Shown: positions 1,181 through 28,700, numbered from the stretch's first letter. The stretch: 32,000 nt of DNA from Microcystis aeruginosa NIES-843 (GCF_000010625.1 NC_010296.1:2310001-2342000), one strand, 5' to 3'. The notes: generated by a model not told the origin, from the letters alone. A program made the numbers and translations.

Positions 1181-1240
1181 GGACTCGAACAAGGACTAGA
1201 GCGAGGACTAGAGCGAGGAAAACTAGAGGCTAAACTGGAA
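1181..1240 (+). repeat. In-frame 12-nt tandem repeat, copy 1 (GLEQ GLER GLER GKLE AKLE)
   Basis: Read directly; five 12-nt units. Confidence 0.9.
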
Positions 1241-1270
1241 TCTATTCCCCGTTTGCTTGCTTTGGGTTTA

Positions 1271-2220: not shown

Positions 2221-2293
2221 TAAGTGTGGAACAAATCGCTCAAGCTTTGGATTTAGACTTAGAACAAGTCCGACAAGCTATTCAAGAAACTCC

Positions 2294-3154: not shown

Positions 3155-3969
3155 AACCCCATGACCAATTTGCCAAAAATTACCTTGAACAATTACTTTC
3201 TCCCCTGGGAGTCGTCGAAATCAGCAAAGAAGTCAGCGACGAAACTCGACAGATAGATTTATTTTTTTCCCCCAATCCCGAACCCAACCCCAATTATCTG
3301 GGATTATTAGGCAGAATTGTCCTTAATACTGTCTTAATTGAACCCTATCGCAATCCTCCCAACCGTAGCGAGATTCGTAATTGTTTAGCGAAACTTTTGA
3401 CGATTTTAGCCGAACTGCAAAGACAAGCTAAACGGGAAAATCAGAGCTACAATGAAGACAATGCCCCTCGTTTGTGGATTTTATCCCCTTCGGCTAGTCT
3501 GACTCTTGTAGAGAGTATTGGGGCAAAATTAGACCCAGATTGGCCAGAAGGAGTCTATTTTCTTCCCTCGCTTTATCGCACGGCAATTATCGCTATTAAT
3601 CAATTGCCTGTGACTGCTGAGACTCTTTGGTTAAGATTATTAGGAAGGGGAAAAACTCAAGACCAAGCGGTGCGAGAATTGTTAGAATTACCTCAAGGTA
3701 ATGCTTTCCGGGAAAATGTCCTGGAATTATTAATTAGTTGGCGGGTTAGTATGGAAATAAATAACATCCTAGAAACTGAAGATAGAGAGGTGTTTATGAC
3801 CTTATCTCAAACCTATCAGGAATGGAAGGAAGCAACTAAACGGGAAGGACGACGGGAAGGAAAACTGGAATCTATTCCCCGTTTGCTTGCTTTGGGTTTA
3901 AGTGTGGAACAAATCGCTCAAGCTTTGGATTTAGACTTAGAACAAGTCCGACAAGCTACGCAAGGGTAG
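3151..3969 (+). CDS. Array paralog copy 3 (272 aa, shortest linker, divergent C-terminal end RQATQG)
   Basis: Full-length ORF nearly identical to copy 2, but the GLE[QR] repeats are absent (REGRREGKLESIP). It ends with TAG at 3967-3969 and is not overlapped by a following paralog. Confidence 0.9.
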   Translation: MKPHDQFAKNYLEQLLSPLGVVEISKEVSDETRQIDLFFSPNPEPNPNYLGLLGRIVLNTVLIEPYRNPPNRSEIRNCLAKLLTILAELQRQAKRENQSYNEDNAPRLWILSPSASLTLVESIGAKLDPDWPEGVYFLPSLYRTAIIAINQLPVTAETLWLRLLGRGKTQDQAVRELLELPQGNAFRENVLELLISWRVSMEINNILETEDREVFMTLSQTYQEWKEATKREGRREGKLESIPRLLALGLSVEQIAQALDLDLEQVRQATQG

Positions 3970-7493: not shown

Positions 7494-8390
7494 ATGAAAC
7501 CCCATGACCAATTTGCCAAAAATTACCTTGAACAATTACTTTCTCCCCTGGGAACCGTCGAAATCAGCAAAGAAGTCAGCGACGAAACTCGACAGATAGA
7601 TTTATTTTTTTCCCCCAATCCCGAACCCAACCCCAATTATCTGGGATTATTCGGCAGAATTGTCCTTAATACTGTCTTAATTGAACCCTATCGCAATCCT
7701 CCCAACCGTAGCGAGATTCGTAATTGTTTAGCGAAACTTTTGACAATTTTAGCCGAACTGCAAAGACAAGCTAAACGGGAAAATCAGAGCTACAATGAAG
7801 ACAATGCCCCTCGTTTGTGGATTTTATCCCCTTCGGCTAGTCTGACTCTTTTAGAGAGTCTTGGGGCAAAATTAGACCCAGATTGGCCAGAAGGCGTCTA
7901 TTTTCTTCCCTCGCTTTATCGCACTGCAATTATCGCTATTAATCAATTGCCTGTGACTGCTGAGACTCTCTGGTTAAGATTATTGGGAAGGGGAAAAACG
8001 CAAAACCAAGCGGTGCGAGAATTGTTAGAATTACCTCAAGGTAATGCTTTCCGGGAAAATGTGCTGGAATTATTGATTAGTTGGCGGGTTAGTATGGAAA
8101 TAAATAACATCCTAGAAACTGAGGATAGAGAGGTGTTTATGACTTTATCTCAAACCTATCAGGAATGGAAGGAAGCAACTAAACGGGAAGGACGACAGGA
8201 AGGACTAGAGCGAGGACTCGAACAAGGACTAGAGCGAGGACTAGAGCGAGGACTCGAACAAGGAAAACTAGAGGCTAAACTGGAATCTATTCCCCGTTTG
8301 CTTGCTTTGGGTTTAAGTGTGGAACAAATCGCTCAAGCTTTGGATTTAGACTTAGAACAGGTCCGACGAGCTATTCAAGAAACCCCATGA
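7494..8390 (+). CDS. Array paralog copy 4 (298 aa, longest linker)
   Basis: Full-length ORF with its own upstream non-coding region. The linker is GRQE-GLERGLEQGLERGLERGLEQ-GKLEAKLE. Its TGA overlaps the ATG of copy 5 (8387-8390). Confidence 0.9.
   Translation: MKPHDQFAKNYLEQLLSPLGTVEISKEVSDETRQIDLFFSPNPEPNPNYLGLFGRIVLNTVLIEPYRNPPNRSEIRNCLAKLLTILAELQRQAKRENQSYNEDNAPRLWILSPSASLTLLESLGAKLDPDWPEGVYFLPSLYRTAIIAINQLPVTAETLWLRLLGRGKTQNQAVRELLELPQGNAFRENVLELLISWRVSMEINNILETEDREVFMTLSQTYQEWKEATKREGRQEGLERGLEQGLERGLERGLEQGKLEAKLESIPRLLALGLSVEQIAQALDLDLEQVRRAIQETP
8202..8285 (+). repeat. In-frame 12-nt tandem repeat, copy 4 (GLER GLEQ GLER GLER GLEQ GKLE AKLE)
   Basis: Read directly; seven 12-nt units, starting at codon 237 of the gene. 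Confidence 0.9.
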
Positions 8391-9241
8391 AACCCCATGA
8401 CCAATTTGCCAAAAATTACCTTGAACAATTACTTTCTCCCTTGGGAACCGTCGAAATCAGCAAAGAAGTCAGCGATGAAACCCGACAGATAGATGTATTT
8501 TTTTCCCCCAATCCCGAACCCAACCCCGATTATCTGGGATTATTAGGCAGAATTGTCCTTAATACTGTCTTAATTGAACCCTATCGCAATCCTCCCAACC
8601 GTAGCGAGATTCGTAATTGTTTAGCGAAACTTTTGGCGATTTTAGCCGAACTGCAAAGACAAGCTAAACGGGAAAATCAGAGCTACAATGAAAAGAATGC
8701 CCCTCGTTTGTGGATTTTATCCCCTTCCGCTGGTATCACTGTTTTAGAAGGATTTGGGGCAAAATTAGACCCAGAGTGGCCAGAAGGAGTCTATTTTCTT
8801 CCCTTGCTTTATCGCACGGCAATTATCGCTATTAATCAATTGCCTGTGACTGCTGAGACTCTTTGGTTAAGATTATTGGGACGGGGAAAAACGCAAAACC
8901 AAGCGGTGCGAGAATTGTTAGAATTACCTCAAGGTAATGCTTTCCGGGAAAATGTGCTGGAATTATTGATTAGTTGGCGGGTTAGTATGGAAATAAATAA
9001 CATCCTAGAAACTGAGGATAGAGAGGTGTTTATGACTTTATCTCAAACCTATCAGGAATGGAAGGAAGCAACTAAACGGGAAGGACGACAGGAAGGAAAA
9101 CTGGAAGGAAAACTAGAAGGAAAACTAGAAGGAAAACTGGAATCTATTCCCCGTTTGCTGGCTTTGGGTTTAAGTGTGGAACAAATCGCTCAAGCTTTGG
9201 ATTTAGACTTAGAGCAGGTCCGACAAGCGGCGCGAGAGTAA
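8387..9241 (+). CDS. Array paralog copy 5 (284 aa, GKLE-type linker, last copy)
   Basis: Full-length ORF. The linker is GRQE-(GKLE)x4. It is the most diverged of the close copies (IDVFF, NPDYL, SAGITVLEGFG, LPLLYRT) and ends RQAARE-TAA. Confidence 0.9.
   Translation: MKPHDQFAKNYLEQLLSPLGTVEISKEVSDETRQIDVFFSPNPEPNPDYLGLLGRIVLNTVLIEPYRNPPNRSEIRNCLAKLLAILAELQRQAKRENQSYNEKNAPRLWILSPSAGITVLEGFGAKLDPEWPEGVYFLPLLYRTAIIAINQLPVTAETLWLRLLGRGKTQNQAVRELLELPQGNAFRENVLELLISWRVSMEINNILETEDREVFMTLSQTYQEWKEATKREGRQEGKLEGKLEGKLEGKLESIPRLLALGLSVEQIAQALDLDLEQVRQAARE
9095..9142 (+). repeat. In-frame 12-nt tandem repeat, copy 5 ((GGAAAACTRGAA)x4 = GKLE x4)
   Basis: Read directly; starts at codon 237, the same position as in copy 4. 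Confidence 0.9.
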
Positions 9242-17534: not shown

Positions 17535-19298
17535 TTAATAATTAGAGCGACTTTGTTTAAGATTAAGAAACTTGGTAAATTCTGGTTGAAAAAGTAGCTT
17601 AATTGTGCCGGTGGGACCGTTACGGTGTTTAGTAATAATTACTTCGGCCACACCTCGATCGGGACTATCGGGGTTATAATATTCATCTCGGTATAACATC
17701 ATAATTAAATCCGCATCCTGTTCGATACTATTATGGACGATGATATTATTGGCAATAAAATTATGCAATTTATCTACTGTTAAATCATACACTTCTGTCT
17801 CTCCATCCGCTTGAATTGCCATAACTTCATCCCAATTAAACCTTAGGTCTGAATTACTCAGAGAGCGAGGTAAAGCGATATAATTACCGATATTTAATTC
17901 ATCTAATCTTTGCCAACCGTGGACAGTCAAAAATTTATGATTGGCTGTAGCTCTAATCGTGCGACCTAAACGAGTTGTTAATCGAAAAACTGGCTTAAAT
18001 CCTGTGGAAAAGACCTTAGTTACCAGTGCTTTTTCTAATTTCATTGTTTCCTCATTAAGAGCAAAAACCGTAAAATTAGAGCAATTCACTAACTGACAAA
18101 TTGGCACTTTAGCACGAGGAGCGGCTAACTCAACTAAACTATCACCCGCTAAACATCCCGACTCGCGTAAATCGGACATCATCGGTCTTTTATTATTGCG
18201 AGATTCCACGGCGCGACTTAACTGAGAAAGAGCAATTACCGGAGCATGAATTTCTCTCGCTAAACCCTTAAGACTGCGGGTAATTTTAGAAAGTTCCTGA
18301 ACACGATTATCACCTCCCCCTTCCATTAATTGCAGATAATCGATTAAAACTAATCCCATTTGCCCCTTTTTTTCTGCCTGTAAACGCCGCACTTGGGAAC
18401 GCATTTGAATTACACTTAAATTGGCACTATCATCGATATATATGGGCAAATTTAATAACTTTTCTAGTCCCCCAAGAACCTTCTCTAAATCATTTTGTCC
18501 CAAACGGCCCGAGCGAATCCGATTACTTTCGATTTTAGCCTCATTTGATAACAAACGTTGGGCTAATTGTTCCTTGGACATCTCCAAACTAAAGACAGCC
18601 ACAGGTAAATTCTGTTGAGCGATATTATAGGCAATATTAAGAGCAAAAGAAGTTTTTCCCATGGAAGGCCTACCCGCGATAATAACTAAATCCGAGGGTT
18701 GTAAACCACTGGTCATCGCATCGAGATCATAAAATTGAGTTTCGATACCAGGTAGAGTGGTCGTCTCCTGCATTTTCTCAATTTCGTTAAAAGTTTCAAT
18801 TAAAGTATCCCCCAGAAAAATTAAACCCTCCTGGGGTCGTTTTTGGGTGAGACGAAAAATCTTTTGTTCCGATTCATCGAAAACATTTTCTAATTCTAGC
18901 GTCGTATCCCTGGCTAACTCAATAATTTCTCCCCCGGTGGAAATTAACTGACGACGCATATATTTATCCATCACTAATTCAGCATAGCGATCGATGTTGG
19001 CAGCCGAGACAGTGCGCTCAATTAATTGTAACAATCGCGGCATTCCCCCGATTTCTTCCAGCAGATAGTTATCCTGTAACCAGCTGCTAACCGTCATTAA
19101 ATCCGTCGGTTTTCCCTTCCCTTGTAAAGCAAGCGCCGCACGATAAATATCTTGATGGGTTTTCACATAGAAAGCTTCTGGAATTAAAAAATCACTGATT
19201 CTACCTAACGCTTTTGGATCTAGTAAAATACCACCTAAGATAGATTCTTCCGCTTCAATATTTTGGGGGGGGAGGGACTGATCGCTAATCATTGTCAA
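17535..19298 (-). CDS. dnaB: Replicative DNA helicase DnaB (intein-containing precursor)
   Basis: LPPQNIEAEESILGGILLDP, Walker A GRPSMGKTSFALN, LVLIDYLQLM and ALSQLSRAVESR are DnaB hallmarks. The track start at 19298 is a TTG; an ATG at 19292 is the alternative. Confidence 0.95.
   Translation of the reverse strand: MTMISDQSLPPQNIEAEESILGGILLDPKALGRISDFLIPEAFYVKTHQDIYRAALALQGKGKPTDLMTVSSWLQDNYLLEEIGGMPRLLQLIERTVSAANIDRYAELVMDKYMRRQLISTGGEIIELARDTTLELENVFDESEQKIFRLTQKRPQEGLIFLGDTLIETFNEIEKMQETTTLPGIETQFYDLDAMTSGLQPSDLVIIAGRPSMGKTSFALNIAYNIAQQNLPVAVFSLEMSKEQLAQRLLSNEAKIESNRIRSGRLGQNDLEKVLGGLEKLLNLPIYIDDSANLSVIQMRSQVRRLQAEKKGQMGLVLIDYLQLMEGGGDNRVQELSKITRSLKGLAREIHAPVIALSQLSRAVESRNNKRPMMSDLRESGCLAGDSLVELAAPRAKVPICQLVNCSNFTVFALNEETMKLEKALVTKVFSTGFKPVFRLTTRLGRTIRATANHKFLTVHGWQRLDELNIGNYIALPRSLSNSDLRFNWDEVMAIQADGETEVYDLTVDKLHNFIANNIIVHNSIEQDADLIMMLYRDEYYNPDSPDRGVAEVIITKHRNGPTGTIKLLFQPEFTKFLNLKQSRSNY
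17730..18155 (-). other. DnaB mini-intein (142 aa, no homing-endonuclease domain)
   Basis: Inserted between RESG and SIEQDADL. It starts with Cys (CLAGDSLV, block A), has TANHKF (block B), and ends with VYDLTV...HNFIANNIIVHN followed by a +1 Ser. Codon positions were checked: TGT at 18155-18153 and AAT at 17732-17730. Confidence 0.9.
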
Positions 19299-19374
19299 TG
19301 CTGACCGTGCTTTATCATTAATATTGTATAGTCAGTTTCACCGTAATTAAATACAAATGTTCAGGTTAATGATC

Positions 19375-19485
19375 GGGGTTGGGTTTTGGGGTTTTAGGGT
19401 TTTGGGGTTTTAGTTGAAATTTCCCCACTTCCCCACTTCCCCACACCCCACACCCCACACCCCACTTCCCCACATCCCACATCCC
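19375..19485. repeat. Compound microsatellite block A: telomere-like GGGGTT/GGGTTTT run (19375-19411), then CCCCACTT/CCCCACA units (19423-19485)
   Basis: Read directly in the divergent dnaB-cobM intergenic region. Confidence 0.9.
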
Positions 19486-19503
19486 TTGTAAAGAGGATTT
19501 AGT

Positions 19504-20292
19504 ATGACTTTAATTGACTCCTCGGCGCTCTCCCCGGCCGTCTATTTTATTGGTGCGGGACCCGGAGATCCGGAATTATTGACGGTAAAAGCCTATAAAA
19601 TTCTCCAAAAAGCCGATGTTATCCTCTTTGCTAATTCCCTCGTCCCTAAACAGATTCTTGAGGATACTCGTCAAGATGCCGAGTTAATTCCCACCAGTAG
19701 CATCACCCTAGAGGAAATTATCCCTTTAATGATCGATCGCGTGCGTCGGGGTTTAGCGGTGGTGCGACTGCAATCGGGGGATTTAAGTCTCTATAGTGCC
19801 ATCCAAGAACAAATTCATCTTTTGACAGCAGCAGATATCCCCTTTCAGCTAATCCCCGGAATTAGTGCCTTTCAAGGATTAGCGGCCAAATTGGCCCTAG
19901 AATTAACGATTCCGGAATTAGTCCAGACAATTATTCTAACCCGGGTGGAAGGAAAAGCCTCTCCCATGCCAGAAAGTGAAGAATTAGCCTCTTTAGCCGC
20001 CCATAAAGCCAGTTTATGCCTATATTTAGCCGCCCGTCACGTTGACAAAGCCCAGGAAAAACTCCTAAAATACTACCAGCCAGAGCAACAGGTGGCCGTT
20101 TGTTTCCGTCTCGGTTGGCCTGACGAAAAAATCTGGGTTGTCCCCCTGTCAGAGATGGCCCAATTAACCCATCGGGAAAATTTAACTAGAACTACCCTTT
20201 ATCTAATTAGTCCCGCTTTAAACCAGATTACAGGAACTCGATCGCAACTTTATCACCCGCAACATTCCCATCTTTTCCGTCCTCATCCTTAG
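19504..20292 (+). CDS. cobM: Precorrin-4 C(11)-methyltransferase
   Basis: VYFIGAGPGDPELLTVKA, LQSGDLSLYSA and LTRVEGKASPMPESE closely parallel CobM/CbiF. Confidence 0.85.
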   Translation: MTLIDSSALSPAVYFIGAGPGDPELLTVKAYKILQKADVILFANSLVPKQILEDTRQDAELIPTSSITLEEIIPLMIDRVRRGLAVVRLQSGDLSLYSAIQEQIHLLTAADIPFQLIPGISAFQGLAAKLALELTIPELVQTIILTRVEGKASPMPESEELASLAAHKASLCLYLAARHVDKAQEKLLKYYQPEQQVAVCFRLGWPDEKIWVVPLSEMAQLTHRENLTRTTLYLISPALNQITGTRSQLYHPQHSHLFRPHP

Positions 20293-20427
20293 GTATTTTC
20301 TGGGAAGTCTATCGAAAGAAACACTAGGTTTCTACCTAAAGTTAGAGTTAAAGAGCGGCGATTTTGTTTAAGATTATTTCAGGAGGTAGGACAATTTTAA
20401 AAGCTTTTAAAATTAGTCTAACAATCC

Positions 20428-20586
20428 ATGCACAACTGCCCTATATGTTCGGGAATTACCCTTCGTCACCTTGTGGCTAGTCGTGCCTACTGGTATTGTC
20501 CTCACTGTCGTCAGGAGGTTCCTAACTTCCTTGATTGCTCCATTCCTCGCAGGGTAGAGCGAGTTAGAGCGGAAAAAACAGTCTAG
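20428..20586 (+). CDS. Small zinc-ribbon protein (52 aa), absent from the ORF track
   Basis: ATG at 20428 to TAG at 20584-20586: MHNCPICSGITLRHLVASRAYWYCPHCRQEVPNFLDCSIPRRVERVRAEKTV. It contains paired CPxC motifs (C4/C7 and C24/C27) and is followed by a strong hairpin. Confidence 0.5.
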   Translation: MHNCPICSGITLRHLVASRAYWYCPHCRQEVPNFLDCSIPRRVERVRAEKTV

Positions 20587-20617
20587 ATTTTCAAGTTGGT
20601 AGATGGCAATAAGACCT

Positions 20618-20648
20618 GTGGGATGTGTTAATTTTTAACCCATCCCAC
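20618..20648. terminator. Hairpin between the convergent zinc-ribbon ORF and tspO (possible bidirectional terminator)
   Basis: GTGGGATG-t-GTTAA-ttt-TTAAC-c-CATCCCAC, giving 13 bp of pairing. The flanking T tracts are weak. Confidence 0.4.
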
Positions 20649-20657
20649 TTTACCTAT

Positions 20658-21125
20658 CTATACATCCCGAGGATTGAGATGGATCATTTCCCAAGTCACA
20701 TAGGTACCGATCGGACTCCAAATCAGGTAGGGTAGGAGTAGGATGCCCGCCCAAGAAGAAACAGGGAAAACCAATAGCGCCAGAAGACAACCCAAGAAAA
20801 AACCCGTACCTCCGATAATCGTTCCCGCTTTGAGACTGCGTAGTTTACAGGTGACGGGAGTATAGGCAGTAATAGTCAATTCCACCAACAGATAAAAAGC
20901 CATCAAAAACCAGCGATTAGCCGGTTGAGCTTCCCAGACTAAATAAGCAGAAATTGCCCCACAAATATAGATAATTGTCCAGATAAGAGGGATTAATCTT
21001 TCAAAGGTTAACCAATCGGGACGACGCAATCGCGCAAACCAACGTACATCGCGAGAATTGAGTAATCCCCCAGCTAACGCTACCAAAAATCCGACGACAC
21101 CGATAAGCAACCAAGAGGGAATCAT
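20658..21125 (-). CDS. tspO: TspO/MBR family tryptophan-rich sensory protein
   Basis: 155 aa with five TM segments. WFARLRRPDWLTFERLIPLIWTIIYICGAISAYLVW is the TspO signature. Confidence 0.85.
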   Translation of the reverse strand: MIPSWLLIGVVGFLVALAGGLLNSRDVRWFARLRRPDWLTFERLIPLIWTIIYICGAISAYLVWEAQPANRWFLMAFYLLVELTITAYTPVTCKLRSLKAGTIIGGTGFFLGCLLALLVFPVSSWAGILLLPYLIWSPIGTYVTWEMIHLNPRDV

Positions 21126-21134
21126 GATTTTAAG

Positions 21135-21476
21135 CTATCCTCCGCTAATTTTGGCTTTGTAACCCGATTCAATGAGAATTTGTACAATTTTTTGGCGATG
21201 ATCTCCTTGGATCTCAATGGCATTTTCTTTCACTGTACCACCCGTTCCGCAAGCAGTTTTTAACTGTTTTAATAATTTCGTCAGAGTTTCGGTTTGGCAT
21301 TGAAAACCTGTAACCATGGTAACGGTTTTTCCCGCACGACCGGAGCGGGAGGTTTGAACTCGCAAATTCTGCTGATTTGGGGGTAATTCAGGAATGGAAC
21401 GCTCAAAAGCTGGAGAATTACTTTGATCTCCAAATTCCTGATAGGCAATCCGGTTTTTTTCTTTTGATTTACTCAT
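21135..21476 (-). CDS. yciH: SUI1/YciH family translation initiation factor
   Basis: LRVQTSRSGRAGKTVTMVTGF...LKQLKTACGTGGTVKENAIEIQGDHRQKIVQILIESGYKAKISGG. Confidence 0.9.
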   Translation of the reverse strand: MSKSKEKNRIAYQEFGDQSNSPAFERSIPELPPNQQNLRVQTSRSGRAGKTVTMVTGFQCQTETLTKLLKQLKTACGTGGTVKENAIEIQGDHRQKIVQILIESGYKAKISGG

Positions 21477-21493
21477 ATAGCAATTATCATACT

Positions 21494-21607
21494 GGGTTTG
21501 GGGGTTGGGGTTTGGGGGTTGGGAAGTGGGGAAGTGGGGAAGTGGGGAAGCTGTCTCATCACCCTATCACCCCAAAACCCTATCACCCTATCACCCTATC
21601 ACCCTAT
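21494..21607. repeat. Compound microsatellite block B: GGGTTTGGGGGTTGGGG + (GGGGAAGT)x3.5 (21494-21550), then (CACCCTAT)n (21560-21607)
   Basis: Read directly. The last CACCCTAT unit overlaps the last two codons and the stop (21599-21601) of the photolyase-like gene. Confidence 0.9.
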
Positions 21608-23122
21608 CTCCTCCTGACTACTGATAGCTCTTAATTGGTTGGACTGGCAGCGCATTTGATTAAGTTCAGCTGCCGACATTCGATCGAGATGACCTAAAAT
21701 CATATTAACTCGACCTTGGGATTTTAATTTTTCTCGATGTCGTGCCAAAAAATCCCAGTAAAGAAAGTTAAAAGGACAGGCAAACTCCCCGACTCGTTCA
21801 TTTTTTTTATACAGACAACCCCGACAATAATCACTCATTTTATCAATATAGTTGGCCGAGGCGGCGTAGGGTTTGGAAGCGAGAATTCCCCCATCGGCAA
21901 ATTGTCCCATTCCCAACACATTAGTCTGCATTACCCAATCGTAGGCATCGATAAAAACACTATGAAACCAGTTTTCAATCTCTTGGGGAGAGCAACCAAA
22001 AATTAAGGCAAAATTGCTCAAAATCATTAATCTTTGAATATGATGGGCATAACCAGTATTTTCCACCTGTGATAATACTTGTTTGAGGCAATTCATCTCG
22101 GTTTGATTACTATCCCAAAAGAAAGCCGGTAAGGGTTGTTGATGCTCAAACCAATTACGATTAGCGTAATCTTCTCCCAAATAATGATAAATTCCCTGCA
22201 TATATTCCCGCCATCCCAACACCTGACGGATAAATCCTTCGATGCTATTTAGGGCTAAATTATCTTTTTTATAGGCAATTTCTGCCCCCTGAATCACTTC
22301 CAACGGCGTTAGTAATCCTAGATTAAGATAGGGAGATAATAGGGAATGCCAGAGGGTTTCTTCTCCCGTTATCATCGCATCTTGGTAGGGTCCAAAGTTG
22401 GGCAGACAATTAGTAATAAAATGCTCCAAAACCTGTAAAGCTTGTCTGCGGGTTACTGCCCAGCGAAAAGGTTTGATTTTTCCATATTTAGGAATATCTA
22501 AAGCTTCCACATCAGCGATAACCTGAAGGGTAATTTCATCGGGTTCAAACCAAAGAGGAGCAGCAGTTTTTAATCCATCCTTGGGCGGTTTGCGGTTTTG
22601 TTTATCAAAGTTCCATTGTCCTCCTATGGGTTGATTATTCTCCATTAAAATCTGCCATTTTTTGCGACTTTCTCGATAGAAATCCTCTAGTAATAGTCTT
22701 TTACGAGATTTAGCCCAATTATTAAAATCTGTCCTAGTCCAGAGAAAGTGATTATTATCAATTAGGGTTATAGGACAGTCTAAATTAAGATTTTTGATTA
22801 ATCTAAGAAAAGGTAAATCATTAGGCATCATAATCTGTAATTCTTTAATGCCTAATCGTTTAATCCAAGCAGATAAAATCGGCTCAAAATCTTCTGCAAC
22901 TTCGTAGGTGACAGACCATCCTAAAGTTTTTAATTCTTCGGCAAAATGACGCATCGCCGACCAGATGAAAACTAATTTTTGCTGATGATAGGGTCTTTGT
23001 CGAATATGATTGTGGGATTCAATTAAAATAACCGGCGTTTCCTGTGCATAGGCTTGACGATTAGCTAAGGCCGCTTGTCCTGTCCATAATTGATCCCCTA
23101 AAATCCAAATACCAATGGTCAT
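21599..23122 (-). CDS. Cryptochrome/photolyase family protein, FeS-BCP / bacterial (6-4) photolyase-like
   Basis: 507 aa. The N-terminus is MTIGIWILGDQLW. C-terminal Cys residues (MNCLKQV ... CRGCLYKKNERVGEFACPF) fit the four-Cys Fe-S cluster arrangement of PhrB/CryB-type proteins. Confidence 0.8.
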   Translation of the reverse strand: MTIGIWILGDQLWTGQAALANRQAYAQETPVILIESHNHIRQRPYHQQKLVFIWSAMRHFAEELKTLGWSVTYEVAEDFEPILSAWIKRLGIKELQIMMPNDLPFLRLIKNLNLDCPITLIDNNHFLWTRTDFNNWAKSRKRLLLEDFYRESRKKWQILMENNQPIGGQWNFDKQNRKPPKDGLKTAAPLWFEPDEITLQVIADVEALDIPKYGKIKPFRWAVTRRQALQVLEHFITNCLPNFGPYQDAMITGEETLWHSLLSPYLNLGLLTPLEVIQGAEIAYKKDNLALNSIEGFIRQVLGWREYMQGIYHYLGEDYANRNWFEHQQPLPAFFWDSNQTEMNCLKQVLSQVENTGYAHHIQRLMILSNFALIFGCSPQEIENWFHSVFIDAYDWVMQTNVLGMGQFADGGILASKPYAASANYIDKMSDYCRGCLYKKNERVGEFACPFNFLYWDFLARHREKLKSQGRVNMILGHLDRMSAAELNQMRCQSNQLRAISSQEEIG

Positions 23123-23308
23123 AATTATCTCATTGCCTCGACTATTCCCCCGTATTTTTTAGCCATAATATCCGCCATTTCCCGAGCAGAAAATTTACTG
23201 GCTTTGTCGATGCTGGGGGTAAATGTCCCCGTAGGGGTTAAATAATGGGTAAATACCCCGACTTTTTTGCTAATAATCCACATATTTCTTGAAGTAAAAA
23301 ATCAAAAA

Positions 23309-23443
23309 GGGGATGGGAAGTGGGGTGTGGGGTGTGGGGTGTGGGGTGTGGGGTGTGGGGTGTGGGGTGTGGGGTGTGGGGTGTTTTCTCAGTGAACTGA
23401 TAACTGATAACTGATAACTGATAACTGATAACTGATAACTGAC
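23309..23443. repeat. Compound microsatellite block C: GGGGATGGGAAGT + (GGGGTGT)x9 (23322-23384), spacer, (AACTGAT)x6 + AACTGAC (23395-23443)
   Basis: Read directly. The block abuts the stop codon (23450-23452) of the hetZ-related gene. Confidence 0.95.
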
Positions 23444-23449
23444 TCCTGA

Positions 23450-24583
23450 TTAGGTTTTTGTCCTGAGACTTTGGGCGCTTAGATAAAGTTGCGTCCATTC
23501 TTTGACCACTTGCGTGCGTTTACAGTTTAATTCGCCGGCGATTTCCTCAAGGGTTTTACCCGCTTTTAAGCCATCGATAACGCTTTTACCCCTGGGAGAA
23601 AGGCCAGCATAGAAACTTTGCCATTGACTGAGAGTTAAGCCAAAATTATGCTCTTTCGGGCTGATTTCTAACCATTCACTGATTAATTCTGTCCCTTCCT
23701 TGAGGGCAAAAACCTTAATCGCATGATAGCCAACTTTTTCCCGGAGACGATAAATCCGTTGAATGGGAATATTCATCTCTTTGGCGATCTCATCTTGGCT
23801 TTCGCCCCCTAGATAGAGGTTAAACCAAGTCACCGCCTCCGGACTAACATTTTCCTCTAGATACTTAGCAAAACTCTCTTGAACTTTTGCCCGGAGAATT
23901 TGCGCTTCTTGGCAAGTGCGTTCATCTTCGTAGGTAGCGATCGCATTTTGATCCAGTAAACTTAAGCTAGTTTCCCCCTCATCGTCACTAATTTCATCGG
24001 AGAGAATCCGGATCATTTCTTGCCGCGGCACGTTAGTAATACCGCTTCTCGATTGACGACGGAGATAATTAACAAAACGATAGGCTAACAGGGGTTGATT
24101 GCGGATCGGACGCAGGGCGTATTCCTCTAGGGTGGCTAACAGCAGCCGATCGCGAGTAGTTTGATCGTTGGTACAACGAGCGATCCATGCTAACTGGGAT
24201 TGCAGATAGCGATCGCTATTTAACATCTCTTGAATAATTTCTTGCAAGACATCGGCCACCGCTTGCCGACGATCGCGACTTAAGGAAACCCAAGTGCGAA
24301 TTTTTTGCCGGAGAGTGACACAAGCGCCGAGACGATCGATCAGGTTACGATAGCCGCGGGTGGGACTAACTTTGAGATAGCGTTGCCGTAAAATTTGCCA
24401 AAGATAGACTAATCCCCGTTTAGCGATTTCTAAATCTCTCTCATCTAAATTTTCCCAACGTTGGCTATCTTCACCGAGTAACCAATTGATAATGGTATCC
24501 CGTTGGCGATCGGTTAAGGAATCCTCTGTTTGAGAGAGGCGATCTTGCCATTGTTGCCTTAACTCGTCGATTATTGTCGTCAT
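23450..24583 (-). CDS. HetZ-related protein (two C-terminal sigma-70 region-4-like HTH segments)
   Basis: The C-terminal half (SQDEIAKEMNIPIQRIYRLREKVGYHAIKVFAL...ELISEWLEISPKEHNFGLTLSQWQSFYAGLSPRGKSVIDGLKAGKTLEEIAGEL) parallels Anabaena HetZ as I recall it. The track start at 24601 is a TTG, so the ATG at 24583 is used here. Confidence 0.6.
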   Translation of the reverse strand: MTTIIDELRQQWQDRLSQTEDSLTDRQRDTIINWLLGEDSQRWENLDERDLEIAKRGLVYLWQILRQRYLKVSPTRGYRNLIDRLGACVTLRQKIRTWVSLSRDRRQAVADVLQEIIQEMLNSDRYLQSQLAWIARCTNDQTTRDRLLLATLEEYALRPIRNQPLLAYRFVNYLRRQSRSGITNVPRQEMIRILSDEISDDEGETSLSLLDQNAIATYEDERTCQEAQILRAKVQESFAKYLEENVSPEAVTWFNLYLGGESQDEIAKEMNIPIQRIYRLREKVGYHAIKVFALKEGTELISEWLEISPKEHNFGLTLSQWQSFYAGLSPRGKSVIDGLKAGKTLEEIAGELNCKRTQVVKEWTQLYLSAQSLRTKT

Positions 24584-24672
24584 CGAAAAATTGAGTTCCA
24601 AACCCCGTCTTTTGAGGACGGCTTTAGTTTGAATATTAGCGCATTTACACGATATATGCTAGAACCTGAGCC

Positions 24673-24720
24673 ATGGAGAAAGCCTATCGCTACCGATTTT
24701 ACCCAACACCCGAACAAGAT
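24673..24720 (+). pseudogene. Remnant of an IS200/IS605-family tnpB (OrfB) 5' end
   Basis: ATG GAG AAA GCC TAT CGC TAC CGA TTT TAC CCA ACA CCC GAA CAA GAT encodes MEKAYRYRFYPTPEQD, the canonical TnpB N-terminal motif. Similarity is lost after codon 16 and a stop follows 25 codons later. Confidence 0.4.
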
Positions 24721-24849
24721 AGGACTCTAGGCAGAAGAGAAATAGGAATTGTGCGGAAAGTGCGCTCGCATCGCTTCCTAGGGTGTGTTCCCTGAAAACA
24801 TGACAATTTCAAGGTTAACCAATATTTGGGAATGCACCACCCCTACCAT

Positions 24850-25071
24850 TTATAATTCGGGAACATTTTCCTGTTCATAATTTTCTATTAATATTCCCAA
24901 AATTTCCATTAAAGAAGCAAGAGGATGATTTTCATTTTCTCCTATTTCATCTATCAAATTATCTAACATAATTACTAATTGTTCATATTCTGATTCGCTA
25001 CGGGGTATAAAGAGTATTGGCTTTAAGTTTGTCCAGGCTTGCCGTGTTTTCTCTAGATCTATCGTCGGCAT
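24850..25071 (-). CDS. higA: HigA-like antitoxin, N-terminal domain only (HTH domain missing)
   Basis: MPTIDLEKTRQAWTNLKPILFIPRSESEYEQLVIMLDNLIDEIGENENHPLASLMEILGILIENYEQENVPEL parallels the first ~70 residues of E. coli HigA. The ORF stops where the C-terminal HTH should begin. Its ATG (25071) is 4 nt after the higB stop. Confidence 0.6.
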   Translation of the reverse strand: MPTIDLEKTRQAWTNLKPILFIPRSESEYEQLVIMLDNLIDEIGENENHPLASLMEILGILIENYEQENVPEL

Positions 25072-25075
25072 TTTT

Positions 25076-25363
25076 TTACTCCTTCCATTTATTTTTGTCG
25101 TATTCAGCATGAGTTAAAACTTCTCGAATATAAATTTTTTGTCGATTGTAATGAATCGCCGCTATGAGTCTAATCTTATTTCCGCCTATGTTAAAGACAG
25201 TCATTTTTCCTACTTTGTCAGCACTGGGGAAAATGGTTCTTAATGCTGCTATGGACTGAAATTGTCCTGTCTTCATTTTTTGATACCATTCTTTTAATGC
25301 TGATTTGGTTTCGGGATACCTTTCGGCAAATTCATTTAATTTCCTCCGACTGATAACGTGCAT
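25076..25363 (-). CDS. higB: HigB-family type II toxin (RelE-fold mRNA interferase)
   Basis: MHVISRRKLNEFAERYPETKSALKEWYQKMKTGQFQSIAALRTIFPSADKVGKMTVFNIGGNKIRLIAAIHYNRQKIYIREVLTHAEYDKNKW matches the HigB_toxin pattern. Confidence 0.85.
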   Translation of the reverse strand: MHVISRRKLNEFAERYPETKSALKEWYQKMKTGQFQSIAALRTIFPSADKVGKMTVFNIGGNKIRLIAAIHYNRQKIYIREVLTHAEYDKNKWKE

Positions 25364-25392
25364 TTTATTAATAAATCCCGAAAATATTGCCC

Positions 25393-26502
25393 TTAATTAG
25401 CTTTAACTTTCTGCCCGATCGTATCGGCAGTGGTAGTGGAAACCATGGCCGCCATAACTTGTTCGGGGGAAACCGTAAAAGGCAGACGATGAATGTCCGA
25501 ATTAGGCTGACAGGCAATTGCGGCCGCGTGGCGCAACTGGGCCAGGGAAACATCTCTTAATCCTAAATCCTCTAGGGATTTCGGTAAACCAATTTGTTCA
25601 TAAAACTGGATTAGTTGCCCCCGGGCCGATACTGCCAATTGATTACCCAAAACTATTTCCTCTAGACGCAATTGGGCGAGGATGCCGTAGGCGACTTTTT
25701 CCCCGTGCAGGGCATGATGGCAAGCGGGAATATGGGTTAAACCATTATGAATTGCATGGGCGGCCACGGTACGACAATTAGCGCCCCCCAAACCACCAAT
25801 TACTCCGGCTAATAAAACGGTGGCATCTACCACCTGTTTCCAGTCCTCCCCGCCGATATTTTCCAGGGCTGCCGGGGATTTTTGGAAAAGAATATCCCGC
25901 AAAACCCGGGCCTGTTGGACAGCGGCAATGATCAGGGTTTCTGTGCAATGACCGCTACTGACGGAAGCTTCGTACCATTTAGCGATCGCATCGCCAATAC
26001 CGGCGATTAAGGTTCTTTTCGGGGCAGTTTGGATAATACCGTAATCGAGAATTAATAAATCCGGGCAACGGGCTAGGGACAGATCGTAAAGAAACGCCCC
26101 CGCATCGGAATAAACGTTAGATAGGGCCGTCCAAGCGGCACAAGTGGCCGCGGAGGTGGGAATCGTGGCGATCGGCAAATGGCACTGATGGGCGAGTAAT
26201 TTGGCCGTATCGAGGGCCTTGCCGCCACCCACACCGATGATAAAATCTGCCTCATGACTCTTGACAGATGCCTTTAAATATGCTAAGGAATTTTCCGAAC
26301 AATCGGGGGCGTAACTGTGATAGCTAGGAGTGAGATTTTTCAGGGGAGATGACAAAAAAGCTAAATTGCGATCGCCGCCCACCACCAGGGGACGTTTACC
26401 CAAATCCGCTAATTTGCCGGTGGATTCTTCTAGGGCATTGTCACCCCGAATCACTTGTGCGGGGGCGATTAACAGGGGCAAAACAGCGACAGCATTGGAC
26501 AT
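25393..26502 (-). CDS. Iron-containing alcohol dehydrogenase family protein (glycerol dehydrogenase-like)
   Basis: 369 aa. GVGGGKALDTAKLLAH (NAD-binding glycine motif), DAIAKWYE and AAHAIHNGLTH...LHGEKVAYG (metal-binding His residues). Confidence 0.8.
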   Translation of the reverse strand: MSNAVAVLPLLIAPAQVIRGDNALEESTGKLADLGKRPLVVGGDRNLAFLSSPLKNLTPSYHSYAPDCSENSLAYLKASVKSHEADFIIGVGGGKALDTAKLLAHQCHLPIATIPTSAATCAAWTALSNVYSDAGAFLYDLSLARCPDLLILDYGIIQTAPKRTLIAGIGDAIAKWYEASVSSGHCTETLIIAAVQQARVLRDILFQKSPAALENIGGEDWKQVVDATVLLAGVIGGLGGANCRTVAAHAIHNGLTHIPACHHALHGEKVAYGILAQLRLEEIVLGNQLAVSARGQLIQFYEQIGLPKSLEDLGLRDVSLAQLRHAAAIACQPNSDIHRLPFTVSPEQVMAAMVSTTTADTIGQKVKAN

Positions 26503-26521
26503 TTTTTGACAACCTCAAGGA

Positions 26522-27034
26522 TTATTGGCTAATTTTAGCGAAACTTTCGGGAAAAAGCTGTAGTTCAGGTGTATTATCCCCCGGGGCGGTGAAGGATTTT
26601 TTAATCTGTCCTAAGTACAAAGGAGCAGATAAACCGGGCTGAGGGTGAACCAGAGTGCGAGCGCTAATGATAAATTGATTATTACCGCCAGCACCGGCGC
26701 GACCGGAGGAAAACAAGTCACTAGCGGCTTGTTTTAGGGTTGCTTCCACTTGCTCGGGAGTAACAGTATTGGGCAGGGAGATAACAGCTTGATTAGCTCC
26801 GTTATCATAGACAAGGGAGAATCTCACCGCTCCCGGAATTTCGGTACGGGTAAACAGTCCCAACCCAAGACCGAAAATCCCCACCGTCAACACGGCCATA
26901 AAGCTAGTGACACCGACGAGACGAAAGCGGATTCCCCAACCGACGAGAAAAGCGATAATCGTGAGTACCAAAAAAACCAGCGTGGCAATACCAGACCATT
27001 GGATGTATTTGGCAAAGTTCAGGGGAATGTCCAT
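26522..27034 (-). CDS. ycf51: Ycf51 family protein (DUF2518)
   Basis: MDIPLNFAKYIQWSGIATLVFLVLTIIAFLVGWGIRFRLVGVTSFMAVLTVGIFGLGL...GAVRFSLVYDNGANQAVISLP...LYLGQIKKS. The track ORF extends to 27316, but that extension is antisense to queE. Confidence 0.8.
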   Translation of the reverse strand: MDIPLNFAKYIQWSGIATLVFLVLTIIAFLVGWGIRFRLVGVTSFMAVLTVGIFGLGLGLFTRTEIPGAVRFSLVYDNGANQAVISLPNTVTPEQVEATLKQAASDLFSSGRAGAGGNNQFIISARTLVHPQPGLSAPLYLGQIKKSFTAPGDNTPELQLFPESFAKISQ

Positions 27035-27040
27035 ATTTTC

Positions 27041-27046
27041 TATAAT
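27041..27046 (+). promoter_or_regulatory. Perfect TATAAT hexamer between the divergent ycf51 and queE start codons
   Basis: TATAAT at 27041-27046 lies 9 nt upstream of the queE ATG, within a 21-nt intergenic gap. Pattern match only. Confidence 0.3.
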
Positions 27047-27055
27047 ACTGATTCT

Positions 27056-27673
27056 ATGAAAACGGTTAGCATAAACCATTGTACCTATCCTGTTGTCGAA
27101 ACTTTCCATTCTGTCCAGGGCGAAGGCTTTTGGACGGGAAGCAATGCTTTTTTCCTCCGTTTGGGAGGTTGCGATGTCTATTGCCCTTGGTGCGACCAAA
27201 AAGAGTCTTGGAATGCCCACCGTTATCCACAACAATCCCTGCGGGAATTGGTTGAGATGGCAAAAGGGGCTAACCCCGCTATGGTGGTGATTACCGGGGG
27301 TGAACCTTTGATGCACAATCTTGATCCTTTGACCAAGGAATTAAAAAATCAGGGTTTACGGGTACATTTAGAAACTTCTGGCGCTCATCCTTTTACCGGG
27401 GTTTTCGATTGGGTGACTTTTTCTCCTAAAACTTATAAAATGCCCGATCCTAGTATTTATGCACGGGTAAATGAGTTAAAAATTGTCGTGGCTCATCCAG
27501 AGGATTTAGACTGGGCATCTATGCAGGAAAGTAAGTTATCGGAAGGGGTGATTAAATATCTACAACCCGAATGGAATACAGCAGAAAGCAAAGAGTTAGT
27601 CTTTAATTATGTTCTTCGGCATCCCCAATGGCGTCTCAGTCTCCAAACCCATAAGTTTTTAGGAGTCCGCTAG
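27056..27673 (+). CDS. queE: 7-carboxy-7-deazaguanine synthase (radical SAM)
   Basis: YPVVETFHSVQGEGFWTGSNAFFLRLGGCDVYCPWCDQKESW (CxxxCxxC radical-SAM cluster) and the WRLSLQTHKFLGVR end. The start is taken as the ATG at 27056; the track ORF from 26750 is antisense to ycf51. Confidence 0.9.
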   Translation: MKTVSINHCTYPVVETFHSVQGEGFWTGSNAFFLRLGGCDVYCPWCDQKESWNAHRYPQQSLRELVEMAKGANPAMVVITGGEPLMHNLDPLTKELKNQGLRVHLETSGAHPFTGVFDWVTFSPKTYKMPDPSIYARVNELKIVVAHPEDLDWASMQESKLSEGVIKYLQPEWNTAESKELVFNYVLRHPQWRLSLQTHKFLGVR

Positions 27674-27997
27674 TCAGTTATCAGTTATCAGTTATCAGTT
27701 ATCAGTTATCAGTTATCAGGAGTCAGTTATCAGGAGTCAGTTATCAGGAGTCAGTTATCAGGAGTCAGGAGTCAGGAGTCAGGAGACTACTTTTTATTTA
27801 TTCTCCCCACTTCCCCATCTCCCCACTTCCCCATCTCCCCACTTCCCCATCTCCCCACTTCCCCATCTCCCCATCTCCCCACTTCCCCACTTCCCCATCT
27901 CCCCATCTCCCCCCGCAACGCGCACGAAGTGGTCTCCCCACTTCCCCATCTCCCCAATTCATAATTCATAATTCATAATTCATAATTCCCAATCCCT
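27674..27997. repeat. Compound microsatellite block D: 16 heptamers TCAGTTA/TCAGGAG (27674-27785); CCCCACTT/CCCCATCT octamers (27805-27955, interrupted at 27909-27935); AATTCAT heptamers (27956-27997)
   Basis: Read directly. The block starts at the base after the queE stop codon (27671-27673). Confidence 0.95.
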
Positions 27998-28023
27998 AAT
28001 TTACTAACAAGAGGTTAAATACT

Positions 28024-28341
28024 ATGTCTAACAACAATTCTGAACGAGTAGTGCGTCGTGGTCGAGTTTTTCCGGAGATGCAATCTACAGAGGAAGAAAA
28101 GGCCAAACATCGCGCCCGACAATTAGAATTTTATCATCGTTGTTGGCCGATTTTTCAGAGTTTACAGCCCCGGTTAATGAAACATTATTATGGTTGGTAC
28201 ATTGCGATCGAACCCGATAGCGGCGATTATTTTATCGATCCCGATCAAGAAGTGGCCAGTAAAAAAGCCAGGGCAAAATATCCCGACAAAATTCATCACA
28301 TCTTTGGCATTAATGAAACTGGAGTTAGTGGCAGAATATGA
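28024..28341 (+). CDS. Small hypothetical protein, partner of the retropepsin-like protease
   Basis: 105-aa ORF with GAGG 8-11 nt upstream of the ATG. Its TGA overlaps the next ATG (ATGA at 28338-28341). GWYIAIEPDSGDYFIDPDQEVASKKARAKYPDK resembles small DUF5678-like partners, but the assignment is tentative. Confidence 0.65.
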   Translation: MSNNNSERVVRRGRVFPEMQSTEEEKAKHRARQLEFYHRCWPIFQSLQPRLMKHYYGWYIAIEPDSGDYFIDPDQEVASKKARAKYPDKIHHIFGINETGVSGRI

Positions 28342-28700
28342 TTGAAGGGAGATTTGGAACCAAAGGACAAATTTATTTTGATATCGATTTAGTTGGCGAT
28401 GATGGATTGATTCTACCCGCAGAAGTTGTGCTGGATACGGGTTTTACCGAGTTTTTAGCCATAAATAGTCAAGATGCTGACAGTCTTGATTGGCGTTTTT
28501 TGCGACAAAATAAATTGATAACCGCTCAAGGAGAAGCATTTTTTGATATATATTTAGGCAGAGTAAGAATTGATGGTCAGGAATACGAAATTCCCGTCTT
28601 TGCAGGGGAGGCAATTAAGGAGATTTTGTTAGGTTCGCGGTGGCTAAAACAATTTATCTTAGTAGCTAATTATCAACAAACACAGGTGACATTAGGATAA
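28338..28700 (+). CDS. Clan AA (retropepsin-like) aspartic protease, DTGF type
   Basis: 120 aa. The catalytic motif [13 protein letters not shown] and the later ILLGSRWL (flap/dimer region) are consistent with single-domain retropepsin-like proteases of the AF_0612 type. Confidence 0.75.

Follow-up and report, generated by a model that had tools for sequence, protein, structure and literature searches.

Short tandemly repeated repetitive (STRR) sequences of cyanobacteria were reportedly defined by Mazel et al. (1990), whose STRR1, with the unit CCCCA(A/G)T, corresponds to the G-rich heptamers of Nostoc and Xanthomonas. Four compound blocks of this class are described here from a stretch of 32,000 nucleotides of Microcystis aeruginosa NIES-843 (NC_010296.1:2310001-2342000; the whole stretch is called the window, and positions are counted from its first letter). 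Three of them follow queE (block A), a hetZ-family gene (block B) and the photolyase-related gene DPRP (block C), and were singled out by an earlier reading of the sequence, the original prediction, as recurrent 3'-end elements with a possible role in termination or 3'-end processing. The fourth (block D), of the same design, was overlooked there and lies between the divergent starts of dnaB and a tetrapyrrole methylase gene. We give a probability of about 0.7 to the reading that all of them are ordinary members of an intergenic short-tandem-repeat system of Microcystis, without a dedicated terminator role.

MacGregor described TAACTGA repeats in Beggiatoaceae, cyanobacteria and Bacteroidetes, with 265 sets in M. 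aeruginosa NIES-843 that were "often mixed with others" (MacGregor, 2015; PMC4679880). The 24 Microcystis sets mapped in that study gave no clear pattern, and translational regulation was suggested where arrays end 1 nt before starts. The unit is identical to that of the blocks (TCAGTTA is its reverse complement) and likewise intergenic and present in Microcystis; in blocks A and B it forms (TCAGTTA)x6 runs interleaved with TCAGGAG. The published arrays end 1 to a few nt before starts and occasionally, in reverse orientation, stand right after stops, and the present survey reproduces both placements. What differs here is that one rule describes them, the 5' end of the TCAGTTA strand lying at the gene edge, and that the arrays are one arm of compound blocks with conserved junctions.

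Rehm et al. studied GGGAATC and GGGGA(T/C)T repeats of Xanthomonas and Nostoc, which lie nearer the 5' neighbouring open reading frame (ORF) regardless of its orientation and are under-represented in divergent spacers (Rehm et al., 2015; PMC4692102). G-quadruplex (G4) and i-motif formation in vitro was reported for CCCCAAT- and CCCCAGT-type oligonucleotides only, and no regulatory role was found. The Microcystis G/C-rich arrays share with them tandem units of 7-8 nt with G4/C4 tracts, intergenic position, a length that varies between relatives, and a G-rich strand whose 5' end points toward the nearest ORF whatever its orientation. However, the Microcystis units are more diverse (CCCCACTT, CCCCATCT, CCCCACA, GGGTTTTG and GATAGGGT), the arrays form convergent pairs with one another or are joined to TCAGTTA/TCAGGAG arrays at conserved junctions, and they are not depleted from divergent spacers.

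On a statistical level, Mrazek, Guo and Shah (2007), as summarised in PMC4679880, found long simple repeats of 5-11 nt in non-pathogens, with heptamers predominating, mostly intergenic and with cyanobacteria among the richest genomes, and proposed polymerase slippage; as that summary presents it, the work did not deal with unit syntax, polarity or shared junctions. Microcystis is among the genomes with extreme over-representation of G patterns (Huang and Mrazek, 2014; PMC4060949), and its genome papers (Frangeul, 2008; Humbert, 2013) make no mention of tandem or heptamer repeats. The blocks are of the same class as the cyanobacterial STRR and long simple sequence repeats, comprising the TAACTGA (=TCAGTTA) family and G4-type heptamers and octamers: they share head-to-tail units of 7 or 8 nt in at least 3 copies, many intergenic loci and copy-number polymorphism among strains. 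They are further members of known repeat families, and both TAACTGA repeats in Microcystis and the edge placement of G4 heptamers in Nostoc and Xanthomonas are already published. The present analysis goes modestly beyond those descriptions by joining two partial patterns in one edge-polarity rule, and by recording a 47:1 convergence of neighbouring arrays, conserved junction cores and the swapping of modules.

Polarity and placement of arrays at gene edges

The window blocks were inspected directly in the sequence (21300-28300) after re-orientation to the sense strand, and arrays were called with Tandem Repeats Finder (TRF). A scan of species-representative genomes for CCCCACTTCCCCACTT gave 120 stretches, 60 of which were 8-kb Microcystis fragments (453 kb), and a metagenome scan for (TCAGTTA)3 gave another 120, of which 22 were assigned to Microcystis (186 kb) and 98 came from diverse organisms. 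The assignment used BLAST overlap and contig-series names, a 5-mer classifier having been without discrimination, and the 98 non-Microcystis loci served only as a separate cross-phylum check. The Microcystis survey thus covers ~640 kb outside the window in 82 fragments; these were picked for carrying an array, a choice that cannot bias orientation or spacer class, yet they are not a whole-genome census. Gene calls came from an ORF caller based on codon log-odds, for which long ORFs of the surveyed loci served as the training set and which agreed well with public gene calls in the window. Orthologous spacers were merged by BLAST of their flanks and spacers orthologous to the window were excluded, survey locus L083 being orthologous to it. 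The P strand of an array is defined as the strand that reads G-rich (G/C-skewed arrays) or TCAGTTA/TCAGGAG/CAGT-type (H arrays).

In 122 independent spacers, the P strand points away, 5' to 3', from whichever gene is closer in 73 of 99 G/C arrays (73:26, p=2.5e-6) and in 69 of 81 H arrays (69:12, p=7e-11). The ratios are 37:14 (G/C) and 33:7 (H) at stops, and 36:12 (G/C) and 36:5 (H) at starts. All 8 arrays of the window conform, and so do 43 of the 52 arrays that have a spacer to themselves, including 21 of 23 TCAGTTA arrays with a median gap of 1 nt. TCAGTTA-type arrays have their 5' edge closer to a gene than their 3' edge in 59 of 64 cases (p=9e-13), the median gaps being 6.5 vs 187 nt. 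Nineteen of these 64 come within 1 nt of a gene edge on the 5' side and one on the 3' side, so their contact with stops is not due to chance. Where a same-strand stop is the neighbour (n=40), 22 arrays lie at 4 nt or less and 9 at exactly 0; next to an opposite-strand start (n=33), 9 lie at 7 nt or less. The original prediction was right that these arrays are something other than random microsatellites, and TCAGTTA arrays abut stops across the survey at a median gap of 1 nt. The same polarity appears on the non-Microcystis metagenome contigs, where TCAGTTA arrays conform in 65 of 80 cases (p=1.4e-8) and ten arrays stop exactly 1 nt before an opposite-strand ATG, i.e. (TAACTGA)n N1 ATG.

The polarity rule has several consequences for the architecture of a spacer. 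It makes adjacent arrays converge and the spacer quasi-palindromic; by a count independent of gene calls, pairs of adjacent polar arrays sharing a spacer number 47 convergent, 25 tandem and 1 divergent. In a co-directional spacer it produces the order of stop, TCAGTTA or G-rich array, junction, C-rich array and start, which is the layout noted for the window blocks by the original prediction. This syntax does recur: in each of 18 adjacent pairs the G/C-rich array was found on the 3' side of the TCAGTTA/TCAGGAG array. Under the rule, the C-rich module belongs to the downstream start and not to the upstream stop, and in the window the C-rich arrays do lie closer to the start that follows than to the stop that precedes; sense-oriented C-rich arrays are associated with downstream starts, 51 vs 14 in antisense.

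Two other possibilities were considered and set aside. A replication-strand bias is ruled out by the orientation itself, which flips within 100 nt in one spacer and with the gene edge within 4 kb. Pair-specific complementarity of neighbouring arrays was rejected by permutation of partners (z=-0.18); neighbours are inverted as a class only (-13.6 vs -8.2 kcal/mol against the reversed partner).

The arrays are rarely intragenic (3 of 254 period-7/8 arrays in ~485 kb of Microcystis DNA), and they occupy every class of spacer. Among 428 independent spacers, arrays were found in 78 of 276 co-directional (28%), 15 of 71 convergent (21%) and 24 of 81 divergent ones (30%; chi-square p=0.42). For a 3'-end element one would expect an excess in convergent spacers and hardly any copies in divergent ones, and the occupancy shows neither. 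Compound blocks of the H-to-C type outside the window likewise include 6 in sense from stop to start, 3 in antisense in co-directional spacers, 3 in divergent and 2 in convergent spacers. The positional bias relative to stop codons on which the original prediction turned thus exists in part: arrays are positioned at gene edges, but starts and stops are treated alike and there is no stop specificity. The fixed C-rich sense orientation after stops did not hold up, as the G/C arrays nearest a stop are sense-G-rich in the 37:14 ratio given above.

Junctions, inserts and exchange of modules

The arms of the blocks meet at conserved junctions. CAGGAG-ATTATTTTTATTTATTCT-CCCCAC (junction CAGGAGATTATTTTTATTTATTCTCCCCAC) was found in one polarity ~20 times in ~670 kb of Microcystis DNA, orthologous copies included, and sometimes carries a single TCAGGAG. 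Another arrangement, (TCAGTTA)n-TCAGATTTGAGTTTTAAGTGAGCAGTATTAAATAG...CTGTCTTTTCACTG-(ATTACTG/TTTACTG)n-AAAA, is an inverted CAGT/ACTG array pair, and the core TCAGATTTGAGTTTTAAGT, in the form (TCAGTTA)n-TCAGATTTGAGTTTTAAGT...-(TTTACTG)n, is present at 10 loci or more. The junction of block D (GGGGTTTTAGTTGAAATTTCCCCACTT; also TTTTAGTTGAAATTTCCCCACTT) is common to survey loci L119 and L087. A 21-nt insert, CCGCAACGCGCACGAAGTGGT, lies in C arrays at five unrelated loci (the window, L019, L040, L047 and L091), always as CCCC/insert/CTCCCCA and with unchanged polarity. It is similar to the very small dispersed repeats reportedly present in Nostoc (Elhai et al., 2008).

C modules at a minimum of 9 loci end in a tail, CTATACCTTTTAAACAGGATTTAGTAT(G/AAT), which sometimes supplies the ATG. 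This count takes near-exact copies only, a search allowing 2 mismatches having been too loose (212 matches); the sites are window 19480-19506 and L026, L067, L079, L098, L110, L115, L119, L156/L203 and L198. The tail may be a portable leader or promoter piece. At the other end, the three bases before TCAGTTA arrays read T[AT][AT] in a flank logo, like the TTA end of the unit itself, so that the stop TAA looks like part of a degenerate terminal unit; in four arrays the stop lies 7, 14 or 21 nt inside the array. Taken together, the conserved junctions, the nested insert, the tails and the T[AT][AT] flanks point to dispersed, presumably mobile cores with slippage-expanded arms.

In the block C spacer of L004, at L044 (4932-5264) and at L026 (952-1397), the conserved junction TCAGGAGATTAT/ATCTTTATTTATTCT is interrupted by a separate insert, which measures ~100 nt and has ATAGCGTTT...AAACGCTAT as its inverted ends. 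From its sequence it looks like a MITE (miniature inverted-repeat transposable element) nested in the repeat blocks.

Known small dispersed elements reportedly include repetitive extragenic palindromic (REP) sequences and bacterial interspersed mosaic elements (BIME), REP doublets forming hairpins (REPIN), MITEs and small dispersed repeats of cyanobacteria (Bertels and Rainey, 2011, PMC3116915; Elhai et al., 2008). The blocks resemble these in being short, dispersed, intergenic and quasi-palindromic, with small inserts nested in them. In contrast to them, the arms are expandable tandem arrays instead of fixed inverted repeats, and neither a REP-associated tyrosine transposase (RAYT-type) nor any other transposase is linked to them.

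Comparison of orthologous spacers between strains reveals replacement of modules instead of clean presence or absence, and the spacers of blocks C and D have had their complete module sets exchanged. In L003, block C is substituted by (TCAGTTA)3, a unique core and (TTTACTG)n; in L004 the order is (TCAGGAG)n, a junction split by the MITE-like insert, and then two C arrays with (CATAATT)n between them. In L003 and L004 alike, block D is made of TCAGGAG units, junction ATTGTTTTTATTTATTCT and (CCCCACA)n, which is the syntax of block A placed ahead of the methylase start, and the L004 spacer is still the divergent one between dnaB and the methylase gene. Counts vary as widely. The QueE protein is identical on nine public contigs, including the 5.87-Mb chromosome AP019314, and several short contigs break off inside the array; wherever QueE is unchanged, the heptamer count of block A runs from 16 to above 26, and its C module is built either of CCCCAYYT octamers or of CCCCACA/CCCTACA heptamers. 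Among strains with identical flanking proteins, block B ranges from 3 to ~57 TCAGTTA units and from 3 to 9 CCCCACA units. Interchangeable modules at a fixed position, together with such hypervariable counts, are hard to square with a conserved locus-specific signal. An assembly artefact was considered and ruled out, the same blocks being present in independent assemblies that include complete chromosomes.

Weighing the explanations

The blocks are most likely selfish or neutral, slippage-driven arrays seeded by dispersed cores and spanning spacers from gene edge to gene edge. Their arrays would lengthen and shorten by replication slippage, the junction cores would be dispersed by transposition or recombination, and neutral DNA between the outer end of an array and the coding edge would be lost. 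The stop TAA would often come to lie in a degenerate terminal unit (TTA to TAA), units would sometimes be recruited as C-terminal codons, and effects on neighbouring genes, through the length or structure of untranslated regions (UTRs), would be a by-product and not the work of a dedicated terminator. Several points weigh against this account. Slippage and random insertion alone do not explain the polarity rule, which holds in single arrays, or the tight fit of TCAGTTA arrays against gene edges (median gap of 1 nt); something directional, in growth or insertion, or else selection acting on the RNA has to be added. For the junction cores, neither a transposase nor target-site duplications nor empty sites came to light. 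The survey rests on 82 array-selected fragments and a home-made ORF caller, which makes its start codons approximate. The sense layout is favoured ~2:1 at block level in co-directional spacers (22:12 for C-rich and 15:6 for TCAGTTA-type arrays; p=0.12 and 0.08), which leaves room for a weak transcription-linked preference.

Dedicated 3'-end elements, as originally proposed, would act through a template-strand G4 that blocks RNA polymerase, or through C-rich unstructured RNA that serves in termination or 3' processing in place of Rho, which to our knowledge cyanobacteria are held to lack. We consider this highly improbable, even though all 3 of 3 co-directional window blocks begin at a stop and have a sense strand with C-rich arrays, the template strand carries strong G4 motifs, and the weak 2:1 tilt just mentioned is in its favour. 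The statement that the G-rich strand is the template in every case applies to the C-rich modules, and does not apply to the GATAGGGT array of block C, whose sense strand is G-rich. For the sense RNA of block B, folding predicts no structure (z=+0.97, no better than shuffles), as such a model would have it, and the blocks hold no conventional terminator hairpin that could act in their place: a terminator consensus scan gave 7 terminator-like matches in 19000-28400, none of them in any block. An Rfam scan of the whole window at gathering thresholds gave no match. Blocks A and B resemble Rho utilization (rut) sites in having a sense RNA rich in C and poor in G, and block C resembles an intrinsic terminator in that it can fold as a hairpin of G arm and C arm (-36 kcal/mol); on the other side, the blocks have no U-tract, the folds of B and C are no better than shuffles, and neither orientation nor position follows 3' ends across the survey. 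(The sense RNA of block A is stabler than shuffles, z=-3.8, with TCAGTTA pairing with AATTCAT and GGAG with CUCC.) Against a 3'-end element, divergent spacers are occupied as readily as convergent ones, block D and its L004 version (H2-junction-C) lie between two starts, and H-to-C blocks are found in all gene contexts. The orientation of G/C arrays at stops, the tie of sense C-rich arrays to downstream starts and the swapping of module sets between strains speak the same way, and a terminator would be odd behind queE, whose block stands in a co-directional run on to queC of the same pathway.

The polarity at starts as well as stops could be read instead as a code carried by the RNA. Trailers after stops would be G-rich or UCAGUUA, with RNA G4 or protein binding that gives 3'-end protection or pausing, and leaders before starts would be C-rich or UAACUGA, unstructured and G4-free; UAACUGA leaders have stops in all three frames, and initiation that depends little on Shine-Dalgarno would be favoured. 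The rule has the same strength at starts as at stops and holds in single arrays, the conserved tail CTATACCTTTTAAACAGGATTTAGTAT closes C modules right at some start codons, and the (TAACTGA)n N1 ATG arrangement across phyla (the 10 non-Microcystis arrays with a gap of exactly 1 nt) matches the proposal of translational regulation (MacGregor, 2015). An effect on reporter expression has been described in Nostoc for the heptamer repeats upstream of recF and recO (bioRxiv 10.1101/2022.06.06.494920). We nevertheless regard such a code as unlikely. The 3 to ~57 copies at one locus and the replacement of modules beside identical neighbouring proteins argue against a tuned, locus-specific function, and a gene-regulatory role was sought for analogous repeats and none was found (Rehm et al., 2015). 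A more elaborate variant, which appears quite unlikely to us, would make the compound blocks a mobile, quasi-palindromic spacer cassette with expandable arrays as arms and a functional edge polarity: a G-rich/UCAGUUA trailer for the upstream gene, through which G4 or a protein would form or protect 3' ends in a Rho-less organism, and for the downstream gene a C-rich/UAACUGA, G4-free leader with the portable tail ...AAACAGGATTTAGTATG for initiation. If it were true, the same TCAGTTA rule in unrelated phyla would imply a shared protein or mechanism that reads or writes the heptamers.

The same variability that tells against a tuned code could serve phase-variation-like contingency loci, in which slippage changes the length between promoter and start, switches or tunes genes and so generates population diversity in a bloom-former. 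Length polymorphism between near-identical strains is extreme, arrays lie 0-50 nt from many start codons, and units sometimes change C-termini (DPRP has 504, 507 or 517 aa). This explanation is nonetheless very unlikely, as the neighbours are housekeeping and unrelated genes (queE, SUI1, dnaB, cobA-like), not surface or defence genes, and arrays in about a quarter to a third of spacers are too many for classic contingency loci. The conclusion for Nostoc and Xanthomonas was likewise negative (Rehm et al., 2015).

The result for the window is mostly corrective: the blocks are not gene-specific 3' signals, and a role in termination or 3' processing is not supported. Annotators should expect such blocks in a quarter to a third of Microcystis spacers, where they break short-read assemblies and alter the C-termini of genes. 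The wider point is the edge-polarity rule, which is strong, the same at starts and stops and seen also in unrelated metagenome contigs, and of which Rehm et al. (2015) and MacGregor (2015) each saw a part. The natural length and module variants of Microcystis at one locus make a good system for the effects of repeats on transcript ends, translation starts and genome stability.

The four blocks and their surroundings

Direct reading and TRF placed the three blocks of the original prediction where they had been described, with the same units and counts, and each begins 0 nt past its stop codon or overlaps it. In each of the four window blocks, TRF called 7- and 8-nt periods, at 3.2-13.8 copies. 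The expression G3+N1-7 x4 matches every G/C-skewed array of the blocks, and G4 formation by them is a prediction at the level of the motif. Genes were identified by Pfam (DPRP, photolyase-related; radical SAM/QueE adjoining QueC; HetZ).

Features of the four repeat blocks in the window (G4, predicted G4 motif)
Feature	Position	Strand	Remarks
queE stop TAG	27671-73	+	direct reading
Block A, stop-side module: 16 heptamers TCAGTTA/TCAGGAG	27674-27785	+	0 nt after queE stop; direct reading and TRF
Block A, AT-rich core junction ACTACTTTTTATTTATT	27786-27802	+	member of dispersed motif CAGGAG-ATTAYTTTTTATTTATTCT-CCCCAC
Block A, start-side module: CCCCACTT/CCCCATCT octamers	27803-27960 (27803-27912 and 27935-60)	+	direct reading and TRF; G4 on - strand, 27805-27914
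Block A, 21-nt dispersed insert CCGCAACGCGCACGAAGTGGT splitting the C module	~27913-27934	+	sequence
Block A, (AATTCAT)x4.7 array	27956-27988	+	36 nt ahead of next gene's ATG at 28024; TRF
hetZ-family stop TAA	23450-52	-	direct reading
Block B, stop-side module: TCAGGAG, 6 TCAGTTA (23401-23449), partial unit	23395-23449	-	gap 0 to stop; direct reading and TRF
Block B, start-side module: (CCCCACA)x9, then CCCCACTT and CCCATCCCC	23302-23384	-	direct reading and TRF; G4 on + strand, 23309-23381
Conserved 52-aa ORF (MWIISKKVGVFTHYLTPTGTF...)	23125-23283	-	called as gene in public assemblies
DPRP stop TGA	21599-601	-	inside the GATAGGGT array
Block C, stop-side module: (GATAGGGT)x6.4, sense strand G-rich	21558-21608	-	direct reading and TRF; G4 on - strand, 21562-21604
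Block C, start-side module: (CCCCACTT)x3.5 + CCCCAA(A) units	21494-21550	-	ends 17 nt before SUI1 ATG (21476); direct reading and TRF; G4 on + strand, 21494-21547
Block D, left module: (GGGTTTTG)x4	19381-19411	+	TRF and direct reading
Block D, right module: CCCCACTT/CCCCACA array	19421-19485	+	ends 18 nt before methylase ATG; then recurrent tail TTGTAAAGAGGATTTAGTATG

The heptamers of block A begin with 6 TCAGTTA, alternate between TCAGGAG and TCAGTTA, and finish with 4 TCAGGAG. Its C array is separated by 63 nt from the following ATG and by 129 nt from the stop of queE, and the order of a C array followed by AATTCAT units recurs at other loci. A consensus scan gave a weak promoter-like match in the AATTCAT array (27958-27986). 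The final codons of queE (..TTAGGAGTCCGCTAG, 27656-27673) and of DPRP (..TATCAGTAGTCAGGAGGAG.., 21609-21640) resemble TCAGTAG/TCAGGAG/TCAGTTA units; the 3' ends of both genes may have taken up repeat units or given rise to them.

In block B the two modules are joined by CACTGAGAAAACA. The 52-aa ORF begins ~20 nt past the C-rich tract and ends 2 nt ahead of the DPRP ATG, so the gene edge faced by the block B C module is the start of this ORF. Among 6 strains compared, 4 of its codons have synonymous changes only and 2 have amino-acid changes; a Pfam search with it gave no match. A HigB-type toxin gene (25076-25363, -) adjoins a 73-aa ORF within 24850-25363. It is present in L002 and L006 and not called in L001, L003, L004 and L005, which indicates a strain-variable toxin-antitoxin insertion.

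In block C the terminal codons of DPRP (...GAG ATA GGG TGA) lie inside the GATAGGGT array, and the repeat supplies the last two codons and the stop, as had been predicted. The 517-aa form of DPRP arises in L004 through reading into TCAGGAG units.

Block D as a whole (19381-19485) stands between the divergent starts of dnaB (19292, -) and the tetrapyrrole methylase gene (19504, +), in a spacer without any stop codon. G-rich units identical to eukaryotic telomere repeats (TTTTGGGG, TTTTAGGG and TTTAGGG) were seen in its left module, at L119 (2443-2962) and at L071. From either flank of the spacer their G-rich strands run 5' to 3' inward to its centre, in the manner of two telomeres fused together. 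The likeness probably reflects convergence on units that form G4; an origin by 3'-end addition would also account for the polarity.

The dnaB gene (17535-19292, -) carries an intein (Pfam Intein_splicing, residues 391-523), and in L003 dnaB and block D are separated by an inserted IS605 OrfB/TnpB-type gene. Farther away in the window, tandem pairs of paralogous genes of 262-298 aa, with a 4-nt overlap and no significant Pfam match, lie at 33-3969 and 7494-9241 (+). These genes contain in-frame 12-nt repeats (AGGACTAGAGCG, AAACNGGAAGGA), GAAACCCCAT x2 recurs at their junctions (477, 2286, 3143 and 8379), and a DDE transposase gene (4156-5754) separates the two sets.

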